NCBI GenBank assembly: GCA_045639525.1
Contig: JAZUDI010000045.1
Span: 5,479 to 69,478, forward strand
Length of the DNA stretch: 64,000 nt
Source of the DNA: Paludibacteraceae bacterium
GTDB lineage: Bacteria > Bacteroidota > Bacteroidia > Bacteroidales > Paludibacteraceae
Reading direction: 5' to 3'
Positions 1,939 through 64,000 of this stretch are shown in pieces. Each line of letters begins with the position of its first letter. Position 1 is the first letter of the stretch. Under the pieces are notes generated by a model, which did not search any database, was not told where the DNA came from, and saw only the letters and a list, made by a program, of their open reading frames with translations. A program made the position numbers and the translations under genes.

Positions 1939-1946
1939 TAACTTTG
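1939..1946 (+). promoter_or_regulatory. Bacteroidota -7 promoter box (TAACTTTG)
   Basis: Matches the TAnnTTTG consensus and sits 19 nt upstream of the ATG at 1966. Confidence 0.45.
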
Positions 1947-1965
1947 CAAAAAACAATATAGGATT

Positions 1966-5836: not shown

Positions 5837-5860
5837 GTTTCGATAGGGTGGGGAATAGGG

Positions 5861-7012: not shown

Positions 7013-7032
7013 GTCGAAAAATCGTTTAAATG

Positions 7033-7896: not shown

Positions 7897-7917
7897 TTTA
7901 CAATAGTAATCTTCTTC

Positions 7918-8673: not shown

Positions 8674-8680
8674 ATTATTC

Positions 8681-9283: not shown

Positions 9284-9304
9284 AATGAATTGATTTGTAT
9301 GTTA

Positions 9305-10895: not shown

Positions 10896-11029
10896 TTTTA
10901 AGACGTTGCTAATTTAAGAAAAAATATTGGCATTTTCCCCATAAAAGCGTTGAAACTTTTTCTTTGTACTTAGTCTGATAATGTATTGATAATTAACGAT
11001 ATAAGCAATGTTTAACAACCCCAATGACG

Positions 11030-33112: not shown

Positions 33113-34039
33113 TTATAGACGATGGATTCTTCCCAATAGGGAGCCTTCGTAAACCATCGGATAGGCACGAAGGGTGAAGAGCAATCCGTCGCAAGGAGCC
33201 TTCACGTCGCTGAGGACATCGCCTGTCAGTGGCGAGATGATTTGTCCGATGGATTGTCCCTTCTGGACGGTTGTGTCGTTGTGTAGTTCCGTGATGAATA
33301 CGCCGCTTATCGTGGCGTTCAGGAAGGCGACGGTATTTTCTCCTTGGCTGACAATGCTCTCTTTCAATCGGCTCTTGTCAGGCTCCTCTTGCCAAATGCC
33401 CATGCGGAACATCATGTTTTGGATACCATCCACCAGTTGGTTGCACATGGCGTGGCTGATTCTTCCGCCGACGCCCATTTCCGCCACGAGGCAGGGTGTT
33501 CCGGTGGAGTTCAGGGAGTGGGCTAGTGTGGATTCCAATACTGTGGCAGCTTGGTGGATCCAGATGAAGTCGATGCCCATTAATTTGGCGTAAGGGACCA
33601 ATAGTTCGGCAGTCTGCTCCGAGATACGCACTTGGGGCATCTCGCGGAGGAAGATGTTGGAGGCGTGGATGTCGATCACCATATCCGCGCCCGACAAGTC
33701 TGTGTAGATGTCGTGGGCCACCTTCTCAATCATGGATCCGCGGGAGTTGCCGGGAAATATACGGTTCATATCCAGGTCGAAGGCGGGAACGCCCCGTTGC
33801 ATGGAGTCGATGCCCAGTGGGTTGAGGGCAGGGTAAATATCGATGGTCCCTTGCAAAAGATGCATGTTCTCCTTCACCATCTTGGCGATTAAGTAGCAGA
33901 CATATTGTCCCTCTAATTCGTCTCCGTGGGTACCGGTGACGATGCAAATTCTCTTTCCTTTACCATTCGTAAAATGGTTCTTGACAATGCGGAACTCCTC
34001 GTCCACGGGCATTTCAAGACTTGTGACATTTTGAATCAT
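33113..34039 (-). CDS. AstE/AspA-family zinc deacylase/carboxypeptidase-like protein (metal ligands intact)
   Basis: GTHGDELEG (HxxE) and DIHAS (the third ligand His) are present, with a C-terminal beta-barrel (GDVLSDVKAPCDGLLF). Confidence 0.75.
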   Translation of the reverse strand: MIQNVTSLEMPVDEEFRIVKNHFTNGKGKRICIVTGTHGDELEGQYVCYLIAKMVKENMHLLQGTIDIYPALNPLGIDSMQRGVPAFDLDMNRIFPGNSRGSMIEKVAHDIYTDLSGADMVIDIHASNIFLREMPQVRISEQTAELLVPYAKLMGIDFIWIHQAATVLESTLAHSLNSTGTPCLVAEMGVGGRISHAMCNQLVDGIQNMMFRMGIWQEEPDKSRLKESIVSQGENTVAFLNATISGVFITELHNDTTVQKGQSIGQIISPLTGDVLSDVKAPCDGLLFTLRAYPMVYEGSLLGRIHRL

Positions 34040-34830
34040 AACGCTATCATTTCACATTTTATCGTAAGTTGTTCTTGTATATTCGTGCGGGCGAAAAACT
34101 GGCCTCGGTTGGAGGGACAGTCGTAAATATCTCTGCCGTGCGCGATCTTGATGTAGCCCCAATCGATCACCTTGTCGTAGGTGGGGTCAAGCCCGATCCA
34201 TTTCTCTTGGTCGTACACCTCCACCCAAGCGTGGGTCTCGCCTTCGCCCAAGACCAATCCGTTCACATAGCGGGCTCGGATGCCTATGCTTCTGCAAAGG
34301 GCGATCATCAGGTGGGAGAAATCCTGGCAGACACCGTGTCGCTTTTCGAACACCTCTTGGGCGCATGTTTTGTTGTTGGTGACCCCCTTTTGGTAGGTGA
34401 GATGAGTATGGACGGCATGCATGATCTCTTCCGCATTGCGCGCGTCGCAGGCACCTCCTACAGTAATCCCTGTCGCCCAATTCTTCATCGCGTCGTTGAA
34501 ATGGGCCATGGGGGAAGGGAAAAAGTATATGTCGCTGGGAGTATCCTCCACCACGCCGTAGGGACGACATCGGACCACCCCTTCGCTCTCTGTGCGGAAA
34601 TGGTCGTGGATCGACTGGTAACTGCCGTATTGGAGCAGGTTGCCTTGTGCGTCGCGCGACTCGTTCAACAAACAGTCAGAAGGGGAGATCCGCAACGTGT
34701 GCGACTCCACCTCCTGACAACTATTTGAGCATGGGATTGCCCTTAACTTAAAGAAATGGGAGGAGAGGGCAGGGGTGAATGTCGCCTCTGTCATGTAGTA
34801 AAATCTGTATCGTCTCTCCTCTCCGAACAT
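34036..34830 (-). CDS. Transglutaminase-like cysteine protease-fold protein
   Basis: GVCQDFSHL (Cys), ETHAWVEVY (His) and IGLDPT (Asp) form an intact triad. The N-terminus is Bact_transglu_N-like. Confidence 0.85.
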   Translation of the reverse strand: MFGEERRYRFYYMTEATFTPALSSHFFKLRAIPCSNSCQEVESHTLRISPSDCLLNESRDAQGNLLQYGSYQSIHDHFRTESEGVVRCRPYGVVEDTPSDIYFFPSPMAHFNDAMKNWATGITVGGACDARNAEEIMHAVHTHLTYQKGVTNNKTCAQEVFEKRHGVCQDFSHLMIALCRSIGIRARYVNGLVLGEGETHAWVEVYDQEKWIGLDPTYDKVIDWGYIKIAHGRDIYDCPSNRGQFFARTNIQEQLTIKCEMIAL

Positions 34831-34841
34831 CTCCTCTTCTT

Positions 34842-35543
34842 TTAGACTAAGACCAAACAGTTGATGCCTCCCAACACCGTGTTTTTATACGCTTGCGGAT
34901 CCTTTTCAAAAGCCTCCTTGTCGATGATCAACGCATGGAGGCGTGCGGCTTGTACGGCATCGAACATATCGGGATGGGAACGGGTATATTTTTGGATCAT
35001 ATCCCAGGTCTCCTCGATACGGTAATATTTGTAGTCGAAGCGGATGCACATATCCAGGTGTTCCAACAATCTTCCAATCTCTAAAAGGGCGTAGGTCTCT
35101 CCATGGACACGCTCGCGGATGCAGCCCCAGAAGGCGAGCAACCAGTCGGTGATCGGTTGGAGCTCCGTGATGTTGGTCTCTCTGGTGGCGGATTTCGCGC
35201 GGATGAGGTCGCGGCACAACTCAATGTAGGCGAACGACTCCGAATAGATCTCCGAACGAAGCACAATGGCGTTGTCCATCATCATCTCAATGATGCTTCG
35301 AAGGGAGGTGGGGGTGTCCGGATTGTAGAGTTGATCCATCATTTGGTAGCTGGTGGTCATCTCATTGGAGACGTAGATGTCCATCTTTTTTAGAAATTCG
35401 CTGTAAGGAACCTCTCCGACGGGCACGTCGATTACCTCATCATAGGCCTTGCGCATCAAGTGAAGCATAATGTAGCCCCTCTCGGCGTATCGTCCTAACC
35501 AAAACAAACGGTTTGCTTTATTTGCACTCAATATTGATTTCAT
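34842..35543 (-). CDS. Alpha-E domain protein (DUF403)
   Basis: ANRLFWLGRYAERGY... is the hallmark N-terminal motif. The protein is all-helical. Confidence 0.8.
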   Translation of the reverse strand: MKSILSANKANRLFWLGRYAERGYIMLHLMRKAYDEVIDVPVGEVPYSEFLKKMDIYVSNEMTTSYQMMDQLYNPDTPTSLRSIIEMMMDNAIVLRSEIYSESFAYIELCRDLIRAKSATRETNITELQPITDWLLAFWGCIRERVHGETYALLEIGRLLEHLDMCIRFDYKYYRIEETWDMIQKYTRSHPDMFDAVQAARLHALIIDKEAFEKDPQAYKNTVLGGINCLVLV

Positions 35544-35581
35544 ACTCTCAACAATTATTTTTCAAACTATAAGGAATCTAA

Positions 35582-36901
35582 TTATCTCTCCATTACCCAG
35601 GTGTCTTTGAATCCGCCACCTTGGCTGCTGTTCACCACGAAGGAGTTCGGATTGCGGCTGAAGCGCGTCAAGCCCGATTTCCAAACCTTGGTCTCCTTGC
35701 CTGTGATGACGAAGGCGCGGAGGTCGCATTTGCGTGGGGAAGGCTCTCCAGTCTCATCGATGATATCCAGATCGATGAAGTCCACCACCTCTTGCGCAAT
35801 CCAGCGTCGAGGCTCCTTGATGATGAGTTGCTTTACCTCCTCCAGACGCTCCGGTGTCATGTCTCTTCCGAACATCACGCCATATCCGCCCGCTTCGGCC
35901 ACATCCTTGATCACCAATTTCTCTATGTTGCTCAGGATGTATTCGTAATCCTCCTTGAAGAATGGCAAGTAGGTGGGTGCGTTTTGGAGGATTGGCTCCT
36001 CGTTGAGGTAGTACCTTACCATCTTCGGCACGAAGTAGTAGATGCCCTTGTCGTCCGCCACACCGTTGCCCAGCGCGTTGATGAGTCCGATGTTGCCCGC
36101 CTTGTAAGCCTCCATTAAGTTGGGAACGCCCAACAGTGAACTTGGCTCGAAGGCCAACGGGTCGAGGTATTCGTCTGACACGCGGCGGTAGATGGCGCCC
36201 ACGCGGATCTTCTGCTTGTATAGGCCGACATAGTAGACTTTGTTGTCCTCCACGACCAAGTCGCCTGGGAAGGCAAGCACGGCGTCTGTCTTTTCCGCCA
36301 AGTAGGAGTGCTCGAAGAAGGCGGAATTGTATCGTCCTGGGGTCAGGATGCAGTTGATGCCTCGTCCACCGTTGATGTCGTCCATCATCTCCTTGAGCAA
36401 TTCGCCGTAATTGCGGTTGTCTGCGATGAGGTTGTCCCTGAAGGTCTGTGGACAGGCCTTTCTGGTCACTTTGCGGGCGATCATCGGGTAGGAGGCGCCG
36501 CTTGGAATGCGGAGGTTGTCCTCTAAGATCAGCCATTTACCATCCTTCGCTTGTACCAAATCGATACCGGCAATGTGCGCGTATACGTTCAAAGCGGGTG
36601 TGATGCCTTCGCATTCAGGCATGTATCCTTTGCTCTCGTAGGTGAACTCTTTGGGAACAATGCCGTCGGCGACAATCTTTTTGTCGTGGTATATGTCGTA
36701 AAGAAACATGTTTAGCGCTTTCACACGTTGAATGAGTCCCTTCTCCAACATCTCCCACTCTTGGGCTGAAATTTGTCTTGGAATAGCATCAAAGGGGAAG
36801 ATTTGTTCGTTGAATACGCCATTCTTGTAAACACCAAAACGTACTCCATAACGTTCCATCCATTTATTCACGGAATCTCTTGCGGCTAACAGTTCTTTCA
36901 T
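35582..36901 (-). CDS. Circularly permuted type-2 ATP-grasp protein (DUF404/DUF407)
   Basis: FPFDAIPRQIS..EW..LEKGL.QRV.ALN.FL.DIY, LEDNLRIPSG, and NALGNGVADDKGIYYFVP are present. The size and motifs are typical of COG2308 proteins. Confidence 0.85.
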   Translation of the reverse strand: MKELLAARDSVNKWMERYGVRFGVYKNGVFNEQIFPFDAIPRQISAQEWEMLEKGLIQRVKALNMFLYDIYHDKKIVADGIVPKEFTYESKGYMPECEGITPALNVYAHIAGIDLVQAKDGKWLILEDNLRIPSGASYPMIARKVTRKACPQTFRDNLIADNRNYGELLKEMMDDINGGRGINCILTPGRYNSAFFEHSYLAEKTDAVLAFPGDLVVEDNKVYYVGLYKQKIRVGAIYRRVSDEYLDPLAFEPSSLLGVPNLMEAYKAGNIGLINALGNGVADDKGIYYFVPKMVRYYLNEEPILQNAPTYLPFFKEDYEYILSNIEKLVIKDVAEAGGYGVMFGRDMTPERLEEVKQLIIKEPRRWIAQEVVDFIDLDIIDETGEPSPRKCDLRAFVITGKETKVWKSGLTRFSRNPNSFVVNSSQGGGFKDTWVMER

Positions 36902-47510: not shown

Positions 47511-48449
47511 CTACCCAATAATGGATTGAATCACCTCCTCTGTCATTTGTAATCGTTCACTGATTTCTTTCGAGGACATTCCGCTACTGAAAAGTAATCG
47601 TACGGTGGCGTCTATGCCTTGTTGGATGCCTTGTTGGATGCCTTGTTGGATACCCTCCATGCGACCCTCGTTCAATCCCTCCCAGCGTGCGTTGCCCAAT
47701 ACATCGTTCTCTACCCGAACAGCATCCATGTGGCGTTCGTAAGCATGCTTTTCCGCCTCCGACATGGTGAGATAACGCAACTTTTCCTTAGCTTCGCTAA
47801 GGCCTGGTGTTTGGGTGTCCTCTTTGATGACACCTGACTTTAGGTAGTCCATCCACTCCTCCAAAGGGGTAGAGGCGTGGTCGTTGAACTCATTGACGCG
47901 AATGACATAGAATTCCGGGAACACTTCGGTCGGATCCTTCATGGGGCGATAATCCAATGCCTCGTCTGGGAGATTCATGGCTTTCTGCTCTTTAGCGGAA
48001 ACGGTAAGGATATCGTGATTGTGAACGCCTACCAATTTCGTTTGGCCATAGTAGAGATAGTCCGATCCTTTTCCGAGGTCGAAATAGACCACACTGATGG
48101 AAATCACTTTGCGGATTTTGTAGTAATCATCGCCGATGTGCAATTGTTCGGTGATAGCTTTGGCTGTGCCATAGACAATCCGTTCCAAATAGTGGACTTG
48201 TTTGGTCAACTGGACCTCGATGATGTAGATTTCTCCCTTCTCATTTCTTGCCTTGACGTCCACGCGGTTGAACTTGTCCAAGGCATTTTCCTGATTGCTT
48301 TCGCTCTCAAGAATGGCCTCGATTTTCACCTTTTCGCCAGTGAATACACTGATAAAACCCTCCAACACCGCATGGTTGGCCTTCTCCCTGAGCATCTTCT
48401 TGATAGCCCAGTCGAATCGAACGAATTCGTTTGATGCTTTCATAAACAA
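47511..48449 (-). CDS. Rpn-family recombination-promoting nuclease / PD-(D/E)XK putative transposase
   Basis: FDWAIKKMLREKANHAVLEGFI..., DVKARNEKGEIYIIEVQ (PD-ExK core) and the C-terminal EGxxEG/GIQQ repeats are typical of the family. Confidence 0.8.
   Translation of the reverse strand: MFMKASNEFVRFDWAIKKMLREKANHAVLEGFISVFTGEKVKIEAILESESNQENALDKFNRVDVKARNEKGEIYIIEVQLTKQVHYLERIVYGTAKAITEQLHIGDDYYKIRKVISISVVYFDLGKGSDYLYYGQTKLVGVHNHDILTVSAKEQKAMNLPDEALDYRPMKDPTEVFPEFYVIRVNEFNDHASTPLEEWMDYLKSGVIKEDTQTPGLSEAKEKLRYLTMSEAEKHAYERHMDAVRVENDVLGNARWEGLNEGRMEGIQQGIQQGIQQGIDATVRLLFSSGMSSKEISERLQMTEEVIQSIIG
47616..47651. repeat. 12-bp tandem repeat x3 inside the Rpn-family gene
   Basis: GCCTTGTTGGAT x3, perfect, encoding (GIQQ)3 on the minus strand. 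Confidence 0.9.
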
Positions 48450-52859: not shown

Positions 52860-55800
52860 TTACTCCCTGATCAAGGTGAAGTGTCCCGTGAATTGTCGGT
52901 CGATTTCCGGCATATTGATTACGTACCAGTAATCTGTGGAGGATTGTGCCCTGCCGTTATAGGATCCGTCCCATCCCTCATCGTCGCTAACGCCTTCGTA
53001 AAGCAACTTCCCGAAACGGTCGAAAATCTTATAAGAGGCGCGTGGATAACGGTTCAGGTTCTCCACTGCCCAGTTCTCTTTTCCCTCCACGAAATATTCC
53101 GGGATGTGGATGCCATAAACAGGTGTCTCGAATGTATATTCACTTTTACAACCCAATTCATTGGTGATGGTGACATGGTAGGTCGCACCGAAGGAGACAT
53201 TTTCTATGATGTTGGAGGTCGTGATTTCTCGACCCTCGCCGAAATCATAGTAGAGGGTATGTCCGTCGGATTCCGCCTCTATTTTGTAACCAGTCGCCCC
53301 ATATTCCGTGCAGGAGAGCACCTCTGGGTAAGGGAATACCTCCACGGTCCCCTCCGTCTTGTCTTCGCAGATACCGTTTCGGACACTGACGATGTAGTGG
53401 GTGGTGGCGGCGGGACTCACTTTGAGCGTTGGGGCGGATCCCAAGCTGCTCTCGAAATTGCTTTGCGCTGTGCTCCAGATGATCTCTGTGTAGTCACTCA
53501 TTCCCGCAATGCGTAGTGTGACGGAGTCGCCTTCGCAGATCTGCGCGTCGCCCACCGAGATGTCAAGCGGAGCATAGACGACCACTGTGGTGTAAATCGG
53601 TTTGGTTGGACATCCGTTTTCGGATGAGGCGGTGAGCTTGTAGCGGGTGGTCACCTCCGGCGTGACGGTGAGTGATTCGACGCCTTGCTCGACCTTCCTG
53701 TATGCCGATTCGTCTGTCCGGACAGCTTCCCATACGATAGAGGATGGGTTGGAGCATACGGTTTGGAGCGTGACGGTTTCTCCGCCGCAGATGGTGTCGT
53801 TTGGAATCTCTGCGAGGGTTGCTCCTTCGTCCACAATGGCGGTGATGATGCCCGATCCGTTCGGACAATATTTTGCGGTGTAGGACATTTTGTACTGTGT
53901 CGTCTCATCAGGTAAAACGCTGAAAAGGGTGCCTGTGACGTTCAATGGGGTGAAGTCGTCGTCGCTAATGCCCTTTTGCGACCATTTGATGTCGGTGGGC
54001 TTGCCGGTGAATTCTACGCTGATGTCGGTCTTCTCGTGTGAGCAAATCGCTACCGTCGAATCCATTTCAAAGGATATTTTAGGTTCTACCAACAACCTCC
54101 TCTCGTTGGAGATGGCATGTGGACAAACCGCCTCTCCGTCGGAAACGAGTCGGTAATTCACATTCTTTTCCGCCGTAAAGATCCATTGGTCGTTCATTGA
54201 TTGGTCGAAGGTCTCGTAATCCTCTTCTCCGTCAAACATCCTTTGCCATTGGATATTCTTCACATCTTCTTGCGTCACGGTGAGCGTCACATCGTCCCCC
54301 TCGCAAGCGCCCTCTGTGGAGAGCGAAATGGTAAGTTGAGGCTTTTTCTCCACCTCCACTACGAAGTCCTTTGTGACGGTTGGGCACTTTCTGCCCTGGA
54401 TAGCGAGTTGGTAGGTGCTCCGCTCGGTGGGTGTGTCTGTGATAGAGAGACGGGAAGAGGAAAGAATCTCTTCTCCCTTTTTCCAAGCGAAGGTGTTGCG
54501 TTCTGTTAGATCGGCTATGGCGACGAATTCCACGGATGTTCCTTCACAAACGATGGTCGGGACGGGAGCTACCGTGACGGAGACTTTAGGCTCGACGCTC
54601 ACCCGTACCACGTTGGAGTAGATGGTGGGGCAGACATTGGAGTTGGCTGCGGATTTAATGCGGTAGTAGGTGGTGTTGGTCGGCATCGTCGCCTTGATGT
54701 CTGTTTTAGGATCAAACTCCGAGAAGTTTTCTCCATCTTGCGATTTCTCCCAAATGATGGTGTGGGAGGTCTCCTCGTAGCCGACATACATCTTCGCCAA
54801 TTCGCCTTCGCAGATGCTGTCCTTGTCGATCTGCAACCAAACCTCGCCATTGCTCTCTACATTGACATTCACAGATTTTTTTGAGGTCGGGCAGTAGATG
54901 CCCTTCACGTTGAATTCGTAGTAGGTGGCTTGGGTAGGAGCGTGCTTCATCGTGAATTCTCCAGTTGAGAGGGTGTCTTTGTTGACAATCCAGGCGATGG
55001 AGTTGATCTTTTCGTCAATCTCCGCGCTCGCCGTTATTTTCAGTTCGGAGCCTTTGCAGATGGCAGCCGGTAATTCGCTTAGTTGGATATCCTTCACGCG
55101 CTTCTCCGCGTAGACAAACACGGTGTCGGAATAGAGGGTAGGGCAATCTCCCCATTCCGCTTTGGCACGGTAGTAGGTGGTCTGTTGGGGCTGGACGACT
55201 CCTGTCGCCTCGTCGTGAGAGAAACTGTTGAATTTCAGGTCGCTTCCCGTAGCGTACTCCCAGGTTAGTGGGCGGGTGTTCTCTGTGACAGCGGAGAGTA
55301 CGACGTCGTCGCCTTCGCAGACGCTGTCTTTGGAGAGCTTCAGCCTGATGGGAAGGGCCAATCCGCAAGTGTCATATTTGTCAGGCAGCGCGGAGATGGT
55401 GTTGGAAATGGAGAAGTAGGCGCAACCGTTGGATGGTCCTCCATGCTGGTTGATGTATTCGGCCTCCTTTTGTGCCTCCTCCGGAGTGTCTCCTCCCGTG
55501 ATGATTAGTCGGTAAACGCTGCTTTCCGCTATCTCTTTTTCGATCGTGACATTTTTCCTCTCCAATCCGCTCGCTTCGGGGATGGCTTCCCAGGAGAATC
55601 CGTCGTCATCGGATCTTTGCCATAGGAAATAGATGTGGTCGTAGAGTTTGCTCCAAGGTCCGAGGATGTCGTTGGTGACTTGATAGTCGATGATGGCTTG
55701 GGTTCCGTTTTGGACGGCGGTGCCCATTTCGATGATAGGTTCCACCACCTCGTCGTCATCCAATCTGTAGAGAGATAGATCATCCAATACGAAGTCGTTT

Positions 55801-56492
55801 CCGGTTCCGCTGGAACAGTGGTTCAGCACTTGGAGTTTTAGGATGTCGCCCTCTTCGGCGGTGAATTCAAGGTCGAATTGCTTCCACTCCTTTTGGGCGT
55901 GTGTATAGATGCCGTTGGGGTTTTGGTTGGTGCTGTTGTTGAATTCCCAAAGCGGCAAGTTCCCCGTATCCATGCTCTTGACCACCACCGGATGGTCAGG
56001 ATCCTTGATGTTTACGATGTTCAGCGTAAGGTTGGAGAGCAGAATGTTGAGGTTGGTGAAGGAGATGCAGGCGCCGAATAGGGTGAATCGGTATTGATGG
56101 TTGCCGCAAGCGTCGAACTTCATGGTCTGCTCGTAGATAGGCTCCCCATTTCCGGAACTTCCCACGTTCACGATCAGCATGGCGCCGTCCTTGTTCCCCG
56201 TGTGGTCTCCTCCTGCTGTGAAGTGCTCCGCCCAACTCATGTATGGACATGTCTCTCTGGATCTGATGAAGGACCACCAGGTACTGTTAGCGATGCCGTA
56301 ATATCCATCGTCAATCGTGTGGCACTCAGCAAATCGGTGGTTGGGGACGGTCATGGTCGGGTCTGGAAAATCCTTGATGATGGAATCTTCCGCTACGCCA
56401 AAATCCTCCCGCCATATCAAGTTCCATGTCTGGCTTTGGGCAGTGAAATGGATAAATAATAGTGTTAAGAATATAAATAACTTTTTCAGCAT
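52860..56492 (-). CDS. Large secreted adhesin-like protein: N-terminal jelly-roll-like domain, eight Ig-like Cys-pair repeats, T9SS type B (gliding-motility-associated) C-terminal sorting domain
   Basis: Has a signal peptide. GNDFVLDDLSLY ends the N-terminal domain. The repeat units each carry C-x-G...V.L and ...CPT...V.V motifs. The C-terminal IPEYF...NRYPRASYKIFDRFGKLLYEG...GWDGSYNGRAQSSTDYWYVI is type B CTD-like. Confidence 0.75.
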   Translation of the reverse strand: MLKKLFIFLTLLFIHFTAQSQTWNLIWREDFGVAEDSIIKDFPDPTMTVPNHRFAECHTIDDGYYGIANSTWWSFIRSRETCPYMSWAEHFTAGGDHTGNKDGAMLIVNVGSSGNGEPIYEQTMKFDACGNHQYRFTLFGACISFTNLNILLSNLTLNIVNIKDPDHPVVVKSMDTGNLPLWEFNNSTNQNPNGIYTHAQKEWKQFDLEFTAEEGDILKLQVLNHCSSGTGNDFVLDDLSLYRLDDDEVVEPIIEMGTAVQNGTQAIIDYQVTNDILGPWSKLYDHIYFLWQRSDDDGFSWEAIPEASGLERKNVTIEKEIAESSVYRLIITGGDTPEEAQKEAEYINQHGGPSNGCAYFSISNTISALPDKYDTCGLALPIRLKLSKDSVCEGDDVVLSAVTENTRPLTWEYATGSDLKFNSFSHDEATGVVQPQQTTYYRAKAEWGDCPTLYSDTVFVYAEKRVKDIQLSELPAAICKGSELKITASAEIDEKINSIAWIVNKDTLSTGEFTMKHAPTQATYYEFNVKGIYCPTSKKSVNVNVESNGEVWLQIDKDSICEGELAKMYVGYEETSHTIIWEKSQDGENFSEFDPKTDIKATMPTNTTYYRIKSAANSNVCPTIYSNVVRVSVEPKVSVTVAPVPTIVCEGTSVEFVAIADLTERNTFAWKKGEEILSSSRLSITDTPTERSTYQLAIQGRKCPTVTKDFVVEVEKKPQLTISLSTEGACEGDDVTLTVTQEDVKNIQWQRMFDGEEDYETFDQSMNDQWIFTAEKNVNYRLVSDGEAVCPHAISNERRLLVEPKISFEMDSTVAICSHEKTDISVEFTGKPTDIKWSQKGISDDDFTPLNVTGTLFSVLPDETTQYKMSYTAKYCPNGSGIITAIVDEGATLAEIPNDTICGGETVTLQTVCSNPSSIVWEAVRTDESAYRKVEQGVESLTVTPEVTTRYKLTASSENGCPTKPIYTTVVVYAPLDISVGDAQICEGDSVTLRIAGMSDYTEIIWSTAQSNFESSLGSAPTLKVSPAATTHYIVSVRNGICEDKTEGTVEVFPYPEVLSCTEYGATGYKIEAESDGHTLYYDFGEGREITTSNIIENVSFGATYHVTITNELGCKSEYTFETPVYGIHIPEYFVEGKENWAVENLNRYPRASYKIFDRFGKLLYEGVSDDEGWDGSYNGRAQSSTDYWYVINMPEIDRQFTGHFTLIRE

Positions 56493-56762: not shown

Positions 56763-57308
56763 ATGCTATCAGTCTTGCTTACTATTTTATTGATCAATAC
56801 AACAAAGTTCCTTTTGGTGTCGTTTCTTCTTTTTCTTCTCTATGAGGGAGGTGTATTTCTCTATTTCCGTTTCGTGAAGGAGGGTAAGGAGCGTCTCTCC
56901 AAGAATGAATTGCGGAAACGCAAGGAGATGAATTACAAGCAGGAGGATCCAGAACCGGTTAGAGAGGCGACGGTGGTCGCTCCCCTCCAACGAACGGAGG
57001 AACGAGAGGGTTGGGAGCAGTTGATCGGCTATCAGCGCCAGACGGTGGTCTCTCCTACGAAAGATGTGGAGAATGAGGGTACCCTCAAACAAAAGAGCGA
57101 GACGGAGTCTATCTTGGCGGATCTCTTCTCCCAGGAGGGCGATGCGCCTAATCTGCCTGATCCCGTGTCGGAATTCTGCCCGAAAGAGTCGGCCGATGAA
57201 AAGTCGGTGGAAGAGGCGCGACACGATAACTCAAAGGAGAACTCTGTGGACGATGAGATGCAACGCTTCTTCTCGAATTTTGATTTCTCCAATATGAGCG
57301 ACCGCTGA
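56763..57308 (+). CDS. Hypothetical membrane-anchored acidic protein
   Basis: The N-terminal hydrophobic stretch MLSVLLTILLINTTKFLLVSFLLFLLY is followed by a charged, low-complexity tail. The ATG at 56763 is preferred over the GTG at 56649. Confidence 0.4.
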   Translation: MLSVLLTILLINTTKFLLVSFLLFLLYEGGVFLYFRFVKEGKERLSKNELRKRKEMNYKQEDPEPVREATVVAPLQRTEEREGWEQLIGYQRQTVVSPTKDVENEGTLKQKSETESILADLFSQEGDAPNLPDPVSEFCPKESADEKSVEEARHDNSKENSVDDEMQRFFSNFDFSNMSDR

Positions 57309-57319: not shown

Positions 57320-58765
57320 TCAGGAAGGGCCTCTGGATCTTTTCGGTTGCGTGGTTTGTCTCGGATGCGGCGTTTCCCTTCTCATGACGGGGACCAAGGC
57401 GTTGAGATCCTGGTCTATTTTATACCGCCGCTGCTTGTATTCCACCTCTCCACCTCCTTTAAGAAGTCCGATTATGCTGCTGTTCGGGAAGAGGTGGTTG
57501 ATCTGCTCCTCTAACTTCGCCGCGGTTTGTTGCAGATAGAGTTGAGTCTTATTCCCTTGCAGTAATATCTTGCACCTTATCTCCGCGTTTTTTATTTTGA
57601 GAAGAGGCGATAGCGCTCCGTTGGTGGCACTTTGAAGATGACGGACAGAGTCGTCGTCGAAGAAATCCCGGATGTGAAACTCTTTTTTGTCTCCCTGCGC
57701 CCCTTGCATCACGAGTCTTGAGATGGGGGGAAGCCGCTTCTCGCACATGCCGTGGAGAAGTAGGTGAGCCTTCCCCTCCCGGTTGAATTGGTTGATTTGT
57801 ATGATGTCATACAATTTCTGCTTGGCAACGTCTATCTCCCTTCGCTTGTCGTTCCCGTTCGGGAAGCAGGAACTTTCCATTTTCTGTGAAATGTTTTCCA
57901 CGATGCTGCTCTCCATTTCGTGGTGCGAGGGTGCGATAAGGTTGTAGTCGATTTTTTCGGTCAACTCCTCGGAGGTGCTTTCGATCTCTTTGTTGATTTT
58001 GACATTGCTGATGAGAAGGGTCCCCTCCTCCTCTCGGATGGTGATTTCGTCCATAAGGAGGGAAATCATCTTGTCGTATTTTGGGGAGGCTATATCTCCG
58101 ATCTGTTCTTGCGAGTAGGCAAGATCCATGATCAAGTAATCGATGTGTTGGCTAATGACCTCAAGGTGTTGGTGCGCATCCCTTTCCCGCTCTTTGTCCT
58201 TGGTGTTTTGGGCGATATCGAGCAATTCGTTTTTGGATTTAAGATAACTGAATAGGTTCCTCTTGATGAGGAGTTGTTCCCGCTTCTCCATGATCAGTTC
58301 GTACTCCTCCTCGCTGATCTCCTCGTCGGATAGGATGGTCTCATCATCCTCTTTCCGTAGATATTCGTCCGCTATCGCAGGGGGAATATGGTATTGGATC
58401 ATGCCTCCAGCGCCATAACAACTGTTCTCTGTGGTTTGTGGGCTGTATTCCACTTCAAAGTCCTTGATGACGACGTAGGTCGCCACCCTGTTTTTGTAAA
58501 GGTATTTGTTGCTCCGCATATCTTGCCATGGACTGATCTGCAAACCTTGGCAGAGGATGGATGCCCTTCCGTGGGAGTCGAACAAGTGCTTTTGAGGAAA
58601 ATAGAATTCGCATGGTTTCATGCCGCCTGTCTCATAATAGGCGACCAAGGCACATATTTTGGTGCCACTCCTCAGTAGGGTGGTTTCGTAGGAGTCGATG
58701 CCAGGATACTTGTCGCCTCCTTGTCTGACCGAAGCGGTGAATATGGGCTGTTTATCTCTCTCCAT
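57320..58765 (-). CDS. Hypothetical 481-aa protein; N-terminal domain resembles TNT/DUF4237-type NAD+ glycohydrolase
   Basis: The first ~130 aa read ...LFDSHGRASIL...YLYKNRVATYVVIKDFEVEY...CYGAGGMIQYHIPPAIADEYL. This is compared from memory with the TNT consensus ...RFG...GRF...Y.Y.V.KP..V..G...PWFGQPGGG.QY. An acidic, coiled-coil-like middle and an unknown C-terminal domain follow. Confidence 0.35.
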   Translation of the reverse strand: MERDKQPIFTASVRQGGDKYPGIDSYETTLLRSGTKICALVAYYETGGMKPCEFYFPQKHLFDSHGRASILCQGLQISPWQDMRSNKYLYKNRVATYVVIKDFEVEYSPQTTENSCYGAGGMIQYHIPPAIADEYLRKEDDETILSDEEISEEEYELIMEKREQLLIKRNLFSYLKSKNELLDIAQNTKDKERERDAHQHLEVISQHIDYLIMDLAYSQEQIGDIASPKYDKMISLLMDEITIREEEGTLLISNVKINKEIESTSEELTEKIDYNLIAPSHHEMESSIVENISQKMESSCFPNGNDKRREIDVAKQKLYDIIQINQFNREGKAHLLLHGMCEKRLPPISRLVMQGAQGDKKEFHIRDFFDDDSVRHLQSATNGALSPLLKIKNAEIRCKILLQGNKTQLYLQQTAAKLEEQINHLFPNSSIIGLLKGGGEVEYKQRRYKIDQDLNALVPVMRRETPHPRQTTQPKRSRGPS

Positions 58766-59291
58766 GTAGATGTTTCTTTCCCAAATTCAGGTATTGGCTC
58801 TTCTCTGTTTCGCTCAGATTCCGGTAGCGAATGACGATCTTAATGTCTGGTTCCTCGCCCAGCTCCATGACGGAGCAGATGGATCCCCAGGTGGCGTCGA
58901 ATCGCACCTCTTTGTCCGAGGCTTGGATCTCCATGGGAAGTGCGCTCTCCTGCGCAAGGAAAGCGTCGTGGCCCCTCTTGATGGTTTGTGCGATCTCCTT
59001 GGCGTTCTCTCTGCTCTCCCAGGTTTGGGTGTGCGCGGCTTCCTCGGATCGGATGGTGATGCTCTCCAAAAAATTGTTTCTGCCAAAGCGGATCTCGATG
59101 CGATAGTCCTTCCCGTGGGAGGATAGATGCGGATAGATGAATCCGTTTCTGCCGGCGGATTGACAGTTTTGTGCGTCGATTTGTTTTCGATGAAACGCTC
59201 CGCTCAAATAGTTCTCTTTGGATAGCATGGGCTCGAAGCTTACTTCGACTGTGTTGTCCCATGCCATTTTCCCCGTTAATAAATCTATCAT
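58752..59291 (-). CDS. Hypothetical 179-aa protein, overlaps the downstream 481-aa gene by 14 nt
   Basis: An intact ORF whose stop lies inside the start of 57320..58765. No recognisable motif. Confidence 0.5.
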   Translation of the reverse strand: MIDLLTGKMAWDNTVEVSFEPMLSKENYLSGAFHRKQIDAQNCQSAGRNGFIYPHLSSHGKDYRIEIRFGRNNFLESITIRSEEAAHTQTWESRENAKEIAQTIKRGHDAFLAQESALPMEIQASDKEVRFDATWGSICSVMELGEEPDIKIVIRYRNLSETEKSQYLNLGKKHLHGER

Positions 59292-59804
59292 ATAGTTGTT
59301 TTATCTTTATCGGTTCAAGGATGAGCCCTTTACAGGTAAAAGGTGTTTTGAGTATAAATAAATCCTAATGAATTAACTGAAATATTGGTAAATGTTATAC
59401 TGTGCGAAGATAGATAATTATTTATTATAAACGATATATACTGATAAATATTTGTTGCATACTTATTATTACATAATAATAGGTGTAAGAATATTATAAA
59501 TATATTGTGGAAAGTATAAAAACATAATAAAGAGTGTAAAAAATATAAATATGATATGAAAAATTAGTCTAAAATATTGCCTGTTATATTTGAAAAAATT
59601 ATTTTTGCAACGAAAAGATTATAAGATGAATATCTAATCAGGACCTCTTTTCTTTTGAGATTTTCTCGAAACTATTGCTGAATTTGGGAGTATGGTTGCT
59701 ACGAATGTGTGGTTTCTTCTCTTTTTCGACACTGATTTCGTTGAACATATATTAAAAAATATACAAAAATTTTGAAAACATTTGTTTTGTATAAAAAATA
59801 CGCA

Positions 59805-59812
59805 TATATTTG
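59805..59812 (+). promoter_or_regulatory. -7 promoter box (TATATTTG) for the tra operon
   Basis: A TAnnTTTG match 43 nt upstream of the traE ATG. A TTTG lies about 15 nt further upstream. Confidence 0.45.
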
Positions 59813-59855
59813 CAAGTGTAAAAATAACACAAAACAATAATAAAAAAGTTTAATC

Positions 59856-60164
59856 ATGAAAAAAAGAATTATGACACTCGGCCTGATGGCCAGTAATTTT
59901 GTGGTTGCCTTGGCGGCGGATGTTCAATCTCAAAAAGGTCAACAAGCCTTATCTCAAGTAGAAACGGATATCAAGACCTATTTTGAAATCGCGTGTGGTA
60001 TCTTTTATGCGATTTGCGCTATCATGGCACTGGTGGGTGCCTTCAAGGTCTATTCCAAGTGGAGCAGTGGTGATCCCGACACAACCAAGGTGGCCGTAGG
60101 ATGGTTTGGTTCTCTGATCTTCGTGGCAGTGGTGGTGACGTTGATTAAATCCTTCTTTATTTAG
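59856..60164 (+). CDS. traE: Conjugative transposon protein TraE (DUF4134)
   Basis: A signal/transmembrane segment, then YFEIACGIFYAICAIMALVGAFKVYSKWSSGDPDT..., the typical TraE pattern. Confidence 0.8.
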   Translation: MKKRIMTLGLMASNFVVALAADVQSQKGQQALSQVETDIKTYFEIACGIFYAICAIMALVGAFKVYSKWSSGDPDTTKVAVGWFGSLIFVAVVVTLIKSFFI

Positions 60165-60229
60165 TCTTTTGTTTGCAAGGTCGTCGGTACCGTAGTTATT
60201 CGGTAGATGGTGCGTTTTATTCGTGGTTT

Positions 60230-60544
60230 ATGGAGTATACTATCAACAAGGGAGTGAATAGGCCTTTGGATTTTTATGGATTGAAGGAGACGTATATATT
60301 TTATTTTGCCGGTGGAGTGACCTGTGCGATTGTCTCCTATTTCATCCTGCAGTTCTTTATCACTTGGGTGGCGATTCTTGTCGCGCTGCTTATTGCGGCG
60401 GCCTCCTATGCGGTGACCTATTACCTGAATGACAAGTACGGGGCAAATGGCCTATCCAAAAGGATGGCGCAGAATGCTTGTCCGAAGCGAATCCAGTTGA
60501 AGCGGACTCGTCAACTCATCAGTAAAGGAGGTGTCAAACGATGA
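60230..60544 (+). CDS. traF: Conjugative transposon protein TraF (DUF4133)
   Basis: MEYTINKGVNRPLDFYGLK is followed by two transmembrane helices. The start was trimmed to the ATG at 60230. Confidence 0.75.
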   Translation: MEYTINKGVNRPLDFYGLKETYIFYFAGGVTCAIVSYFILQFFITWVAILVALLIAAASYAVTYYLNDKYGANGLSKRMAQNACPKRIQLKRTRQLISKGGVKR

Positions 60545-63057
60545 ATTTCAATGTGAAATCCAATGCGGTGGAGCATTGCTTCCCGTTGCTGTCGTATGAG
60601 GAGGGACTGTTGGTCTCCAAATCGGGCGATATCACCCGCCTTTTCGAATTGCAGTTGCCGGAGGTGTTCACCTCGTCGGATGGGGAGATAGACGCAATGA
60701 ACGAGTGTTGGTGCCGAGCGGTGCGTTCCTTGCCCGATTATTCGATAGTCCATAAACAGGATGTGTTCACCGACTCTCTCTACGAGGATCGACCGACCTC
60801 TGATAGCTTTTTGCAAGTGGCCTCCGTGAAACATTTTCAGGGAAGAACTGTTTTGAATCACCGCTCCTTCCTCTATGTCACGCTCTCCACAAAGAATGGC
60901 ATGAAAACCACTGCTGCCGCCAATGCGATATTAAGGAACCGCTTGGTGCCGAGGGAGTCGTTGGACGCCACCCGGATAGATGCCTTCAATGACTGTGTCA
61001 ATCAGATGGTGGCGATTCTTCGGTCGGGTGGTTTTGCCTGTCGTGAACTGACGGAGGATGAGGTGGTGGGAACGGAGGAGCGTTTCGGCATCATCGAGCA
61101 ATACCTCACATTGAACTACACGGGTAGAAACGAAATCCTCTATGATTTGCATGTGAATGAGGATGACTTGATGGTGGGGGATCGCTATCTCTCCTGCTTC
61201 TCTTTGGGGGAGTTGACGCAGTTGCCCAATGTCGTCTCCACCAGCAAGCGGAACGATAAACTCTCCTCGGATGTCTCTACTTTGGCCAACTGCTTTTCGT
61301 ATGAACTCTGTCTGAAACTGCCCTTCAACCATATCTACAACCAGTACATTTTTGTGGATGATTCCAATGAGAATCTGCGGGAACTGGAGAAGCAGGGGCG
61401 TAAGATGGAGTCGCTCTCGGCAATATCGAGGGAGAATGCGATCAACAAGGAGTTTAACGACGACTATTTGAATCAGGCGCAGATCATGAAGGAGCACAGT
61501 ATCCACGCCGCTTTCAATGTTATGGTGTGGGACGCTTCCTATACTCGTTTGCTGGAAAAAAATTCGCAAGTGGGTGGTGTGCTCTCCAACTTGGATTGCT
61601 CCGTGTCGAAAACCGAGGTGATTGTTCCCCATATTTTCTGGGCGGGTATTCCCGGCGCCTCTGCCAACTATCCGGAGGAGATGAAATTCCTTACCTTCAT
61701 CGCACCGAGTGTCTGCTTTTTCAACATGGAGAGCAACTATCGGAACATTTCGGGAGAGAAGGGTTGGGGCTTGAAGTTGACGGACCGCATCAGTGGTGTG
61801 CCTGTTCGTGTGGATCTCAGCGATGAACCAGTCAGAAGGGGTTGGGCCAGCGCTAAGAATAAGTTCATATTAGGCCCCTCCGGATCGGGAAAGTCTTTCT
61901 TCACGAATGTGATGATGGCGCAAAAATATGAGCAGGGAGAGCATCTGGTCATCGTGGATGTCGGCGACTCATATCTAGGATTGTGCCAATTGATCTCGGA
62001 GCAGACGAATGGCGAAGATGGGGTATATTTTACCTACAAGGAGGATGAGCCGATCGCGTTCAACCCCTTTTATGTGGAGGATTATGTCTACACGGAGGAG
62101 AAGATGGTGCAGTTGTTGTCGCTCATCTGCATTTTATGGAAGAACGAGCATGAGGAGATTTCGAAGGCGGAGGAGACTCACATTGAGACTGCCCTTAACT
62201 TATATATAAAAATTATTCAGGAGCATCGGGAGATATTCCCTTGCTTCGATACCTTCTACGCCTTTCTGTCCGACCAATTCAAGAAGTACATTTTACAGAA
62301 ATCGGTTCGGATAGAGAATTTCGACATCGACAATTTGATTCAGGTGTTGGCTCCCTATGCCAAAGGAGGAAAATACGGTTATTTGCTGAATTCGAGGGAT
62401 CGGGTGGATCTGCTCCATAAACGATTTATTGTTTTCGAGTTGGACAATATCAAAGACCACAAGGTGCTCTTCCCGATCGTGACCATCGTGCTGATGGACA
62501 CCTATATCGCTAAAATGAGACGTTTGGCGCCTCATGAGCGGAAGGTGATCTTGATCGAGGAGGCGTGGAAGGCGATCTCCAAGAGCGGTACGGCGGAGTT
62601 CATCAAGTATCTCTACAAAACGGTGCGTAAGCACAATGGAGAGGTGATGGTAGTTACCCAAGAGGTGGGGGATATCATTGGCAATGAAATCATCAAAGAT
62701 GCGATCATCAACAATGCGGATGAGAAGATCCTGTTGGACCAAAGTAAATTTTTGAACCGGTTCGATGAGATTCAGTCAACGTTGGCCCTTTCGGAGAAGG
62801 AGAAGGCGTTGGTGCTCTCCATCAACAGGGATTTACAAAGCAATGGGAATCGGGCCAAGTACAAGGAGGTGTTCATCTCGTTTAACTCAGCCTTTTCCGC
62901 TGTGTATGGCGTGGAGGTGTCGCCTGAGGAGTATTTGACCTTCTCCACCACGAAGGAGGAGAAGGGTGTCGTATTGGCGTATGCCAAGGAGTTGGGTTCG
63001 ATGCGGAAAGGAATCGAGAAGTATATTCAAGTTCATTATAAAAAGAGTATTGTATGA
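60541..63057 (+). CDS. traG: Conjugative transposon ATPase TraG (VirB4 family)
   Basis: 838 aa. Walker A is GPSGSGKSFFTN, and Walker B-like is VILIEEAWKA. The start overlaps the traF stop. Confidence 0.9.
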   Translation: MNFNVKSNAVEHCFPLLSYEEGLLVSKSGDITRLFELQLPEVFTSSDGEIDAMNECWCRAVRSLPDYSIVHKQDVFTDSLYEDRPTSDSFLQVASVKHFQGRTVLNHRSFLYVTLSTKNGMKTTAAANAILRNRLVPRESLDATRIDAFNDCVNQMVAILRSGGFACRELTEDEVVGTEERFGIIEQYLTLNYTGRNEILYDLHVNEDDLMVGDRYLSCFSLGELTQLPNVVSTSKRNDKLSSDVSTLANCFSYELCLKLPFNHIYNQYIFVDDSNENLRELEKQGRKMESLSAISRENAINKEFNDDYLNQAQIMKEHSIHAAFNVMVWDASYTRLLEKNSQVGGVLSNLDCSVSKTEVIVPHIFWAGIPGASANYPEEMKFLTFIAPSVCFFNMESNYRNISGEKGWGLKLTDRISGVPVRVDLSDEPVRRGWASAKNKFILGPSGSGKSFFTNVMMAQKYEQGEHLVIVDVGDSYLGLCQLISEQTNGEDGVYFTYKEDEPIAFNPFYVEDYVYTEEKMVQLLSLICILWKNEHEEISKAEETHIETALNLYIKIIQEHREIFPCFDTFYAFLSDQFKKYILQKSVRIENFDIDNLIQVLAPYAKGGKYGYLLNSRDRVDLLHKRFIVFELDNIKDHKVLFPIVTIVLMDTYIAKMRRLAPHERKVILIEEAWKAISKSGTAEFIKYLYKTVRKHNGEVMVVTQEVGDIIGNEIIKDAIINNADEKILLDQSKFLNRFDEIQSTLALSEKEKALVLSINRDLQSNGNRAKYKEVFISFNSAFSAVYGVEVSPEEYLTFSTTKEEKGVVLAYAKELGSMRKGIEKYIQVHYKKSIV

Positions 63058-63716
63058 AAGATCTAAAATGGATCATCACCATAGCCTTTATGGTTATTTA
63101 TCTGGCGGATGCCTTCTCACAGGGGGCCATGTTGGTGGAGGATCCTGCCTCCATTGCGCAGTCCGCCGCCCAATTCTGTGAGGAGATGACCGAGGCGGGC
63201 GACCAAAAAGCGACGCTCATCCAGCAGTTGAAACAGATGATACAGCAGGCTAAGTTGTTTAAAGACAATGCGGACAAGTACAAGAAGTGTATGAAGTGGG
63301 TGAAGAACGCGCGTGCGGCGATAGAGTTGTTGGATAAAGTAAATGCGCTGAAAGACAATTACTCCGCCTTCTACGATATGGTGAGAAAGTGCGATTGGTT
63401 AAGCAAGAAGGAACGTAATAATTTGATTTACAATGCAAACTTGATTGTAACGGAGTCTTCCCGAATTTATGAGGAGGCCAAAATAATCGTGCGGGAGTTC
63501 ACCGAGGAGGGCGACGCCGGGTTGAGTTCGTATGAACGTATCCAATTGCTGGAACAGTCCGGGACAAAGGTGGATGCTCTGAACGACAACCTGGATGTGA
63601 TGCGGGTGTATACGGAGAGAACGGTCGAGGAGCGTCAATATTATGCGGATCTTCATGCGGCCATGTACAACCAGTACGCTCCTTCGGATTGTCATGTGGA
63701 ATATAGTGTAAAGTAA
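63054..63716 (+). CDS. Conjugative transposon periplasmic protein, TraI-like (DUF4141-like)
   Basis: A signal peptide, then a helical Q/K-rich protein in the position after traG. The exact tra letter is uncertain. Confidence 0.55.
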   Translation: MKDLKWIITIAFMVIYLADAFSQGAMLVEDPASIAQSAAQFCEEMTEAGDQKATLIQQLKQMIQQAKLFKDNADKYKKCMKWVKNARAAIELLDKVNALKDNYSAFYDMVRKCDWLSKKERNNLIYNANLIVTESSRIYEEAKIIVREFTEEGDAGLSSYERIQLLEQSGTKVDALNDNLDVMRVYTERTVEERQYYADLHAAMYNQYAPSDCHVEYSVK

Positions 63717-63725
63717 AAAAAGAAT

Positions 63726-64000
63726 ATGGATAGTTTGGTTAGTGCGTTGACCTTTGAGTCGATTCCGAGTTTCGGAAATCGTTTGAACGAAATCTTGGGT
63801 TACTGTAAGGATGATTTGGGTAGTATCATGCATACCTCCATTTTGCTGTGTGGCCTATTTTCCCTGTTGTATATCGGCAACATCGTGTGGCAAAGTTGGT
63901 GCAATGGAGGCTCCATAAACATATATGCGTTGTTTCGCCCGGTGGTGATTGTCTTGGTGATTTCGAATTTTACGCTGTTCGTGAATGTCTTGGACACGCT
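63726..64000 (+). CDS. traJ: Conjugative transposon protein TraJ (VirB6-like), N-terminal part
   Basis: MDSLVSALTFESIPSFGNRLNEILGYCKDDLGSIMHTSILLCGLFSLLYIGNIVWQSW... is the typical TraJ N-terminus. The frame is open to the window end. Confidence 0.75.
   Translation, partial: MDSLVSALTFESIPSFGNRLNEILGYCKDDLGSIMHTSILLCGLFSLLYIGNIVWQSWCNGGSINIYALFRPVVIVLVISNFTLFVNVLDT

Follow-up and report, generated by a model that had tools for sequence, protein, structure and literature searches.

A predicted TNT-fold NADase and its overlapping upstream partner gene, a probable toxin–immunity pair of gut Paludibacteraceae

The stretch of DNA analysed here (hereafter the window) comprises 64,000 nt of a Paludibacteraceae genome (contig JAZUDI010000045.1, positions 5,479 to 69,478). 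Near one end its minus strand carries two overlapping genes, one for a protein of 481 amino acids (aa) whose N-terminal domain resembles NAD(P)+ glycohydrolases (NADases) and, immediately upstream, one for a 179-aa partner. The features of this pair are as follows.

57320..58765, minus strand: open reading frame (ORF) with an ATG start, the whole gene of the 481-aa NADase-domain protein
58752..59291, minus strand: ORF with an ATG start for the 179-aa partner, a candidate immunity protein; homologues lie upstream of NADase genes
58752..58765, minus strand: 14-nt overlap of partner stop and NADase start, ATGGAGAGAGATAA, read from the sequence
58331..58765, minus strand: residues 1–145 of the 481-aa protein, predicted TNT-fold NAD(P)+ glycohydrolase domain of the Rhs1-CT ('Tne3') type, from profile and Foldseek comparisons
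nt 58394–58396, minus strand: predicted catalytic glutamine Q124, aligning with Gln1452 of Rhs1-CT

An initial annotation, made from the sequence alone, had described minus-strand ORFs of 179 and 481 aa overlapping by 14 nt, and both the ORF list and the junction sequence agree with it. At the junction (...CTAC ATG GAG AGA GAT AAa) the small ORF ends in GGA GAG AGA TAA and the large ORF begins with ATG GAG AGA GAT, the TAA stop of the former sitting 14 nt into the latter. Such an overlap is predicted to couple the end of partner translation to the initiation of NADase translation. Gene calls place an identical overlap in four other loci (L001, L002, L005 and L008), and match coordinates indicate an overlap of 8–14 nt in the remaining loci of clade A, as we call the window's own clade (14 distinct loci, the window included). 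The pair recurs in 14/14 of these loci, at identities of only 43–49% for the large protein and 33–40% for the small one. Ratios of nonsynonymous to synonymous substitution (dN/dS) were calculated against L016, the closest relative found, a Paludibacteraceae metagenome-assembled genome (MAG) from horse faeces in which the flanking epimerase and UbiE share 98% identity with their counterparts in the window; the large gene gave 0.10 and the small gene 0.24. Because the pair recurs throughout clade A and both ratios are low, we conclude that both ORFs are real genes, kept under purifying selection. Among GTDB species representatives, all 16 of 16 loci came from Paludibacteraceae MAGs, recovered from the guts of horse, yak, buffalo and sheep, and three genomes carried two paralogous modules each. 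The source bacterium is an inhabitant of the horse or rumen gut.

The 481-aa protein, the partner and a membrane-anchored protein encoded next to the pair had no match in Pfam, NCBIfam, PADLOC or PHROGs, and single-sequence phmmer searches of the PDB returned nothing significant. About 20 homologous clusters were found among 5.8 billion proteins, with lengths of 478–487 aa except for a 273-aa fragment (P0020), and the first ~135 residues are the best conserved part of the family alignment. A profile built from this alignment matched one PDB chain, 6xtd_A, with E=1.6e-5 over profile positions 10–129 (120 positions). Since the direct library and phmmer searches gave nothing, this relationship came to light only through the family profile. 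The 6XTD structure contains the C-terminal toxin of Rhs1 from Serratia marcescens Db10 together with its immunity protein; Rhs1-CT has been proven biochemically to be an NAD(P)+ glycohydrolase, and each of the substitutions F1386A, R1418A and Q1452A abolishes its toxicity in Serratia (PMC10539506).

Adding 1318 to the 6XTD chain numbering gives the residue numbering of PMC10539506, and in these terms the aligned positions are Q15 (Gln1354), Y20 (Tyr1359), G22 (Gly1361), D24 (Asp1363), F54 (Phe1386), Q76 (Gln1408), I77 (Val1409), K91 (Arg1418), S112 (Ser1439) and Q124 (Gln1452). The three residues essential in Rhs1-CT, Phe1386, Arg1418 and Gln1452, thus correspond to F54, K/R91 and Q124. Position 54 is Phe, or Tyr in some members, and position 91 is Lys or Arg in every family member. 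Across the family there is little or no variation at Q15, D24, Q76 and Q124, at the aromatic positions Y20 and F54 or at the hydrophobic I77, save for Q124 in the sub-clade L028–L030.

An AlphaFold2 (AF2) model of the 481-aa protein, built on the family alignment, reached a predicted local distance difference test (pLDDT) of 79.8 and a predicted template modelling (TM) score of 0.80. When this model was compared with the PDB using Foldseek, 10/10 of the best matches were TNT-type NADases (Rhs1-CT, AfNADase, Tse6 and Tne2). The match to 6xtd_A had E=2.5e-7 and a target TM score of 0.76, which makes Rhs1-CT/RhsI1 (PDB 6XTD, PMC10539506) the closest relative by both sequence and structure; AfNADase (~3e-3), Tse6 (3e-3) and Tne2 (4e-2) matched more weakly, and every other fold stood at E above 0.2. 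The systems TNT/IFT (from CpnT of Mycobacterium tuberculosis), AfNADase, Tse6/Tsi6 and Tne2/Tni2 have the same palm-domain fold, a twisted antiparallel β-sheet, and share with the present family a strictly conserved Gln (Gln822 in TNT) and an aromatic residue at the nicotinamide-ribose site; each of these families has its own unrelated immunity protein. However, the position of TNT Arg757 is not conserved here, and 4QLP lies outside the Foldseek top 50. Pfam TNT (PF14021) likewise gave no match to the window protein at E<=1. Among 80 relatives scanned with PF14021, two matched at 17–18 bits (E ~0.005–0.007), short of its gathering score of 27 bits. The 481-aa protein is therefore outside PF14021 by score. 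By profile and model, its N-terminal region (~10–130) is a TNT-fold NADase domain of the Rhs1-CT ('Tne3') subgroup, and the protein would be expected to act as a NAD(P)+ glycohydrolase.

These results bear out the initial annotation on its central point, a TNT-like NADase at the N terminus, as judged from the 6XTD profile match and from the structural neighbours of the model. The peptide that it quoted, LFDSHGRASIL...GAGGMIQYHIPPAIADEYL, is present in the large protein, and the motif GAGGMIQY at nt 58391–58414 corresponds to G118–Y125. It had named a motif with a catalytic Gln as the mark of TNT-fold NADases, and the sub-threshold PF14021 matches of the two distant relatives fall on exactly that motif. 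Kinship with known NADase profiles held for Rhs1-CT (6XTD) and failed for PF14021. Its concern over a conserved Arg that was not obviously present is resolved: the essential basic residue of the Rhs1-CT subgroup is Arg1418, and this aligns with K91, a position that is Lys or Arg throughout.

TNT-fold NADases and ADP-ribosyltransferases (ARTs) have a common fold, and one relative showed a weak match to the Tse2 ART family (E=0.0035). The domain might in principle be such a transferase, or an altered or inactive NAD-binding domain whose role is not toxic, with the small protein as a chaperone or adaptor. The substitution of Lys for Arg at position 91, the tolerance of catalytic Gln loss in L028–L030 and the intact active site of the partnerless homologue in L010 would fit this alternative, which we nevertheless regard as very improbable: the significant neighbours in structure and sequence are all proven NAD(P)+ glycohydrolases, no transferase being among them, and the active-site constellation of Q15, D24, Q76 and Q124 with the aromatics Y20 and F54 is invariant. 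In the aberrant sub-clade, Q124 is replaced by His in L028 (1097–2470) and L029 (3325–4755), where a partner is present, and by Arg in L030 (4309–5682), where it is absent; the loss of Q124 could reflect altered chemistry or decay. A rule by which a missing partner means a dead toxin fits L030 and fails with L028 and L029 (Q124H with a partner) and with L010 (intact and partnerless).

An exhaustive search by profile across 1.84 billion representatives retrieved 216 clusters. About eight have the full architecture of the window protein and about 12 have an N-terminal NADase followed by the helical region, while in the bulk of the remainder the domain occupies the extreme C terminus of longer proteins. 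The modules found in those C-terminal-domain proteins that were sampled are RHS repeats, DUF6443, LXG/WXG100 of type VII secretion systems (T7SS), VgrG of type VI secretion systems (T6SS), PAAR/prePAAR and PT-TG. RHS, LXG, VgrG, PAAR and the like are standard trafficking parts of secreted interbacterial toxins. A phage association of the module was rejected, the scan of viral contigs giving a single, domain-only match in the viral collection.

Beyond the NADase domain, the following features were distinguished in the 481-aa protein.

58031..58312, minus strand: residues 152–245, long acidic helical hairpin with near-invariant KRNLF and SPxYD motifs (AF2 model and conservation)
57380..57835, minus strand: residues 311–462, α/β domain of orphan fold (AF2 model)
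57323..57379, minus strand: residues 463–481, disordered tail with net positive charge (pLDDT below 50)

The order proposed at the outset, an N-terminal effector, an acidic helical region and an unassigned C-terminal domain, is what the AF2 model shows. The hairpin region also occurs in several other N-terminal-NADase proteins, and a poorly predicted linker joins it to the α/β domain. The C-terminal two-thirds of the protein (~340 residues) had no Pfam, PDB or BFVD relative in Pfam, PDB-profile and Foldseek searches. A likeness of residues 306–370 (57655–57849) to AcrIF14 was discarded; the profile match was weak (E=0.12–0.16, to two distinct PDB sequences) and Foldseek did not support it. The last 25 residues carry a net charge of +5, as against −11 for the whole 481-aa protein, and the tail is net positive in 19/19 clade-A members, whose whole proteins are net negative.

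For the partner, a single-sequence search returned only one further cluster. Reading of the gene neighbourhoods revealed that in nearly every locus the gene just before the NADase gene encodes a homologue of 175–183 aa, 25–40% identical; among distinct full-length loci only L010 and L030 lack it, and the remote relatives L044 and L047 also have a partner homologue upstream. Homologues do occur as a conserved pair in nearly all loci, a point on which the initial annotation had made its reading depend. A partner profile then retrieved ~31 clusters, assigned to Paludibacteraceae wherever labelled and with a Pfam domain in none, and the partner itself matched nothing in Pfam, NCBIfam, PADLOC, PHROG or the PDB. 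As far as these searches reach, the partner family is new and confined to Paludibacteraceae. The protein is predicted to be cytoplasmic, has no hydrophobic segment and was modelled by AF2 as a compact α+β fold (pLDDT 78.6). Assignment to an RhsI1-, Tsi6-, Tni2- or IFT-like family was rejected for want of any structural or sequence neighbour, and the best Foldseek match, to a DUF4309/YjgB-like fold (TM ~0.4, E=0.045), was unconvincing. Known NADase immunity proteins are mutually unrelated (PMC10539506). Three further candidates for partner relatives were discarded: the C-terminal region of the large protein (hhalign probability 1%), the window ORF at 31321–31848, which is unrelated and GNAT-like, and the 177-aa gene upstream of the L010 homologue, which encodes an unrelated TraO lipoprotein.

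Partner genes and whole modules also occur in tandem. In L009, two tandem partner copies precede a single toxin gene, and L034 carries tandem modules. An array in L012 consists of at least 2.5 tandem units of ~900 bp, each made up of an intact partner gene and a 109-aa toxin stub; the stub matches NADase residues 1–84 and ends ahead of the catalytic GG..Q motif. A Barstar gene adjoins this array, and L037 and L038 have similar arrays on independent contigs. Among the L012 units (9032–11203) the middle of the partner gene has diverged strongly (65–76% nt identity), while the partner 3' half and the start of the stub are 99% identical, a mosaic suggestive of recombination or of a localised specificity segment. 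Genes of the PDDEXK_2 (Rpn/transposase-like nuclease) type are found repeatedly near the module and the array (window 47511–48449, minus strand; L002 12357–13295; L005 12755–13669; L008 6909–7787; L012 7526–8482) and may have a role in local rearrangement.

Diverged immunity-type genes beside truncated toxins, as seen in L012, L037 and L038, recall the orphan cassette arrays of Rhs and contact-dependent inhibition (CDI) systems and the acquired interbacterial defence islands of Bacteroidales, as does the Barstar immunity gene alongside the L012 array. The present arrays are, however, a mirror image of these: the stubs keep the toxin N terminus (residues 1–84), each after its partner, because the warhead is N-terminal. 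They also differ in that no recombinase was seen here apart from the PDDEXK_2 gene. Small upstream genes may encode effector chaperones, the Eag proteins being an example, but partner genes that survive in arrays beside truncated toxins make no sense for a chaperone. The tandem partners, the arrays and the pairing in remote relatives point, by their gene content, to an immunity protein over a chaperone or a classic antitoxin.

Altogether, these results make it probable that the pair consists of a NADase toxin and its cognate immunity protein, most likely for use between cells. If nothing held it in check, the 481-aa protein would break down the NAD(P)+ of a bacterial cytoplasm into nicotinamide and ADP-ribose(-phosphate) and thereby stop growth. 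The 179-aa protein would be translated just ahead of the toxin from one transcript, by way of the 14-nt overlap, and would neutralise it as a cognate cytoplasmic immunity protein, presumably by blocking the active-site cleft. The pair would be aimed at neighbouring bacteria and not be solely active inside the producer. Use against neighbours appears the most likely because partner arrays accompany truncated toxins and because the domain is a standard warhead of secreted toxins; for actual delivery from cell to cell we put the chances at about even. The Serratia toxin offers a parallel, being active in the cytoplasm and countered by a small immunity protein dedicated to it. That toxin differs in being the C-terminal tip of a ~1450-aa PAAR/Rhs T6SS protein with its immunity gene downstream, whereas here a 481-aa protein that lacks any Rhs, PAAR or VgrG module carries the domain at its N terminus, ahead of an orphan C-terminal region, and the partner gene is upstream and overlapping, its product bearing no similarity to RhsI1 (6XTD chain B).

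Several observations weigh against this interpretation. The window protein has a Lys (K91) where Rhs1-CT has an essential Arg, a conservative difference, and the catalytic Q124 is replaced in L028–L030. In L010 an intact toxin (P0027) has no partner homologue within the 15-kb locus. The 481-aa protein showed neither a signal peptide nor any known domain for secretion or trafficking (PAAR, LXG, Rhs, VgrG), and the C-terminal domain was found elsewhere only as one stand-alone copy (P0031) in the search of 1.84 billion representatives. Finally, a small overlapping gene upstream is also the classic layout of type II toxin–antitoxin operons.

The last point, together with the lack of trafficking signals and with the many copies that are plainly chromosomal and far from secretion genes, would also suit a toxin–antitoxin or abortive-infection module acting inside the cell, in which an antitoxin holds the NADase, the C-terminal region senses a phage or foreign element, and NAD+ depletion kills or arrests the producer. 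An N-terminal effector joined to a large C-terminal region recalls many single-protein defence sensors, and depletion of NAD+ is an established abortive-infection strategy. A search of PADLOC-DB v2 (E<=1) nevertheless matched none of the three proteins (NADase, partner and membrane-anchored) to any family, which leaves the defence or anti-defence role offered as an alternative in the initial annotation without support. The partner has no DNA-binding or other recognisable domain. Moreover, diverged intact partners beside dead stubs and a Barstar gene are typical of orphan immunity against incoming toxins, and the NADase domain is elsewhere almost exclusively the warhead of secreted polymorphic toxins. 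We consider the intracellular alternative unlikely and favour a toxin–immunity pair directed at other cells.

The question of how such a toxin might be delivered directs attention to the genes on either side of the pair.

59292..59855, no strand assigned: divergent AT-rich control region between the partner gene and traE (564 bp, 23.8% GC)
59856..63057, plus strand: traE (DUF4134), traF (DUF4133) and traG (VirB4-type ATPase, P-loop_TraG) of a Bacteroidota-type type IV secretion system (T4SS), by Pfam
56763..57308, plus strand: convergent ORF for a membrane-anchored protein of ~181 aa, likely starting at M39 of a 219-aa ORF (transmembrane segment; dN/dS 0.22)

The spacer, first estimated at ~560 bp, contains a match to a Bacteroides-type promoter at 59773–59812 on the plus strand, ~44 nt 5' of the traE start, with a −33 TTTG and a −7 TATATTTG at 59805; in the direction of the partner gene, the same promoter scan of the spacer found no exact −7 box. 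From 59856 to 64000 the window carries traE, traF, traG, a 220-aa ORF and the start of traJ. The tra cluster adjoins the pair in 10/14 clade-A loci (the window, L002, L005, L018, L019, L020, L021, L023 in a different orientation, L027 and L031) and is absent from 3/14 (L001, L008 and L025); in the remaining 1/14, L016, the contig ends there. The pair had been placed at the edge of a conjugative element, and this stands as far as frequent adjacency goes, though not as an obligatory association.

As the leading delivery candidate we would name the adjacent Bacteroidota-type T4SS. The comparison that suggests it is with the X-Tfe/X-Tfi effectors and immunity proteins of Xanthomonadales (PMC6759196), which likewise have an upstream immunity gene in a small operon, an N-terminal toxin and a conserved C-terminal region; in many loci here the pair also adjoins T4SS genes. 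Such a layout without an N-terminal trafficking module makes the neighbouring T4SS the leading candidate, and the adjacency in 10/14 clade-A loci, the position of the L010 homologue inside a tra operon and the positively charged tails can be counted in the same direction. This evidence is circumstantial, and we regard delivery by this route as rather unlikely.

Other features set the pair apart from the X-Tfes or speak against the T4SS route. In X-Tfes the C-terminal domain, XVIPCD, binds the VirD4 coupling protein (PMC6759196). No homology to XVIPCD was found by Pfam, PDB-profile or Foldseek searches, in libraries not confirmed to hold XVIPCD. Whereas XVIPCD is common to many effectors, the C-terminal domain here is confined to one family. 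The T4SS here is of the Bacteroidota tra (CTnDOT) type and not of the VirB/VirD4 type, and X-Tfes mostly attack the cell envelope and have periplasmic immunity proteins. Three clade-A loci lack adjacent tra genes, and in clades other than A, adjacent tra genes were seen only in L010. Neither a relaxase nor a coupling protein nor an integrase turned up in any locus (64-kb window and locus contigs). TraG diverges at a housekeeping rate, and the adjacency in clade A may therefore be a single inherited event.

The L010 homologue (10001–11575; P0027, 524 aa, catalytically intact) lies co-directionally within a complete-looking CTnDOT-type tra operon, after traO and before genes for topoisomerase III and SSB, a type of position at which establishment genes are often found. 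Like the location of the pair next to and divergent from traE in the window and nine other clade-A loci, this would be expected if the module served a conjugative element, its protein being transferred with the incoming DNA, or expressed early from it, to act on NAD+ or an NAD-derived molecule in the recipient, in an anti-defence or an addiction/exclusion function, with the small protein shielding the donor. Conjugative elements do co-transfer effector proteins (PMC5512222), but the TNT-type domain is not among the polyvalent and anti-defence proteins described there. In most clades of the family the module has no link to tra genes, the clade-A tra cluster looks vertically inherited with the chromosome and is missing from three loci, and an enzyme that destroys NAD+ would damage the new host of the element. 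We judge both this service to the element and the functions attached to it quite improbable.

The pace of divergence differs sharply within the locus. Across clade A, identity to the window is 84–91% for TraG and 86–89% for the epimerase, as against 43–49% for the NADase protein, 33–40% for the partner and 29–42% for the membrane-anchored protein. Because TraG is as well conserved as the epimerase, the tra cluster appears, on these identities, to have been co-inherited with the chromosome, with the toxin module turning over fast. From these data, the speed of divergence cannot be put down to positive selection acting gene-wide, since dN/dS against L016 is well below 1 for the large gene, the small gene and the gene of the membrane-anchored protein. 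A traE–traN cluster occupies one shared chromosomal position across many Paludibacteraceae species, and its far end, visible in L005 and L023, is followed after traN by a 644–646-aa β-helix protein of the type IX secretion system (T9SS) type, with no traO, traP or traQ seen. From this arrangement the cluster looks like a vertically inherited, possibly domesticated T4SS and not like a recently mobile integrative and conjugative element.

To the left of the pair, the window is chromosomal (MetRS, PNPase, UbiE, epimerase, DUF4348, a β-helix protein and a 1210-aa CHU_C T9SS protein) and syntenic with other clade-A loci. The membrane-anchored protein has a conserved C-terminal FFSxFDFSNM, a basic juxtamembrane KNELRKRKE and a long acidic low-complexity region. 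It was found wherever a clade-A contig extends over its position, with L031 the sole locus to give no match, and accompanies the pair in clade A only; it had no relatives in Pfam, NCBIfam, PADLOC or PHROGs. In other clades the module occupies ordinary chromosomal settings, with housekeeping genes or giant proteins without a Pfam match as neighbours, and no secretion genes were found among the neighbours of the chromosomal copies. Giant surface-type proteins (1200–3500 aa), with CHU_C or Por_Secre_tail T9SS signals or without any Pfam match, stand beside the module in several independent clades (window 52860–56492, minus strand; L001 11540–20864; L002 13697–20191; L013 11001–16549; L033 11658–21275). 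In L001, genes for ATP-grasp, Alpha-E and AstE proteins (3986–8803) are 94–97% identical to those at 33113–36901 of the window and stand just upstream of a partner/NADase pair that shares only 34% and 49% identity with that of the window, with no tra cluster, a pattern that suggests allele replacement and locus rearrangement between fairly close relatives. Upstream of the module in the tra-less locus L008, a 454-aa ORF (698–2062, minus strand) with a faint RHS_repeat match (E=0.0016) may be a remnant of another toxin system.

NADase toxins with immunity proteins are a well-known kind of system, and T6SS, T7SS and Rhs systems already use such weapons. What is new here is the N-terminal warhead, the orphan C-terminal region of ~340 residues, the new partner family and the upstream, overlapping gene order; the mirror-image orphan arrays, the restriction to Paludibacteraceae and the frequent linkage to a Bacteroidota-type T4SS are further distinctive features. 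Full-text literature searches turned up no description of the present module, and the bacteria-killing T4SSs that they found were in Proteobacteria only. One bold and, in our view, unlikely possibility is that the pair is the first effector–immunity module of a bacteria-killing T4SS outside Proteobacteria, injected by means of a new C-terminal recognition domain and basic tail through a tra apparatus of the CTnDOT type that appears to be fixed in the chromosome of Paludibacteraceae. Under this tentative scheme, the family would form a 'mirror-image' polymorphic toxin system, with an N-terminal warhead, an upstream immunity gene and displaced arrays of immunity genes with N-terminal stubs.

Paludibacteraceae are an abundant and little-studied family of Bacteroidales in herbivore guts and the rumen. 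If the pair is indeed a toxin with its immunity protein, it would supply a new immunity fold for structural work on NADase inhibition and a means of studying how strains compete in rumen and hind-gut communities. Should the tra machinery deliver the toxin, T4SS-mediated bacterial killing would extend to Bacteroidota, and a conjugation-type apparatus would prove to be retainable for warfare.

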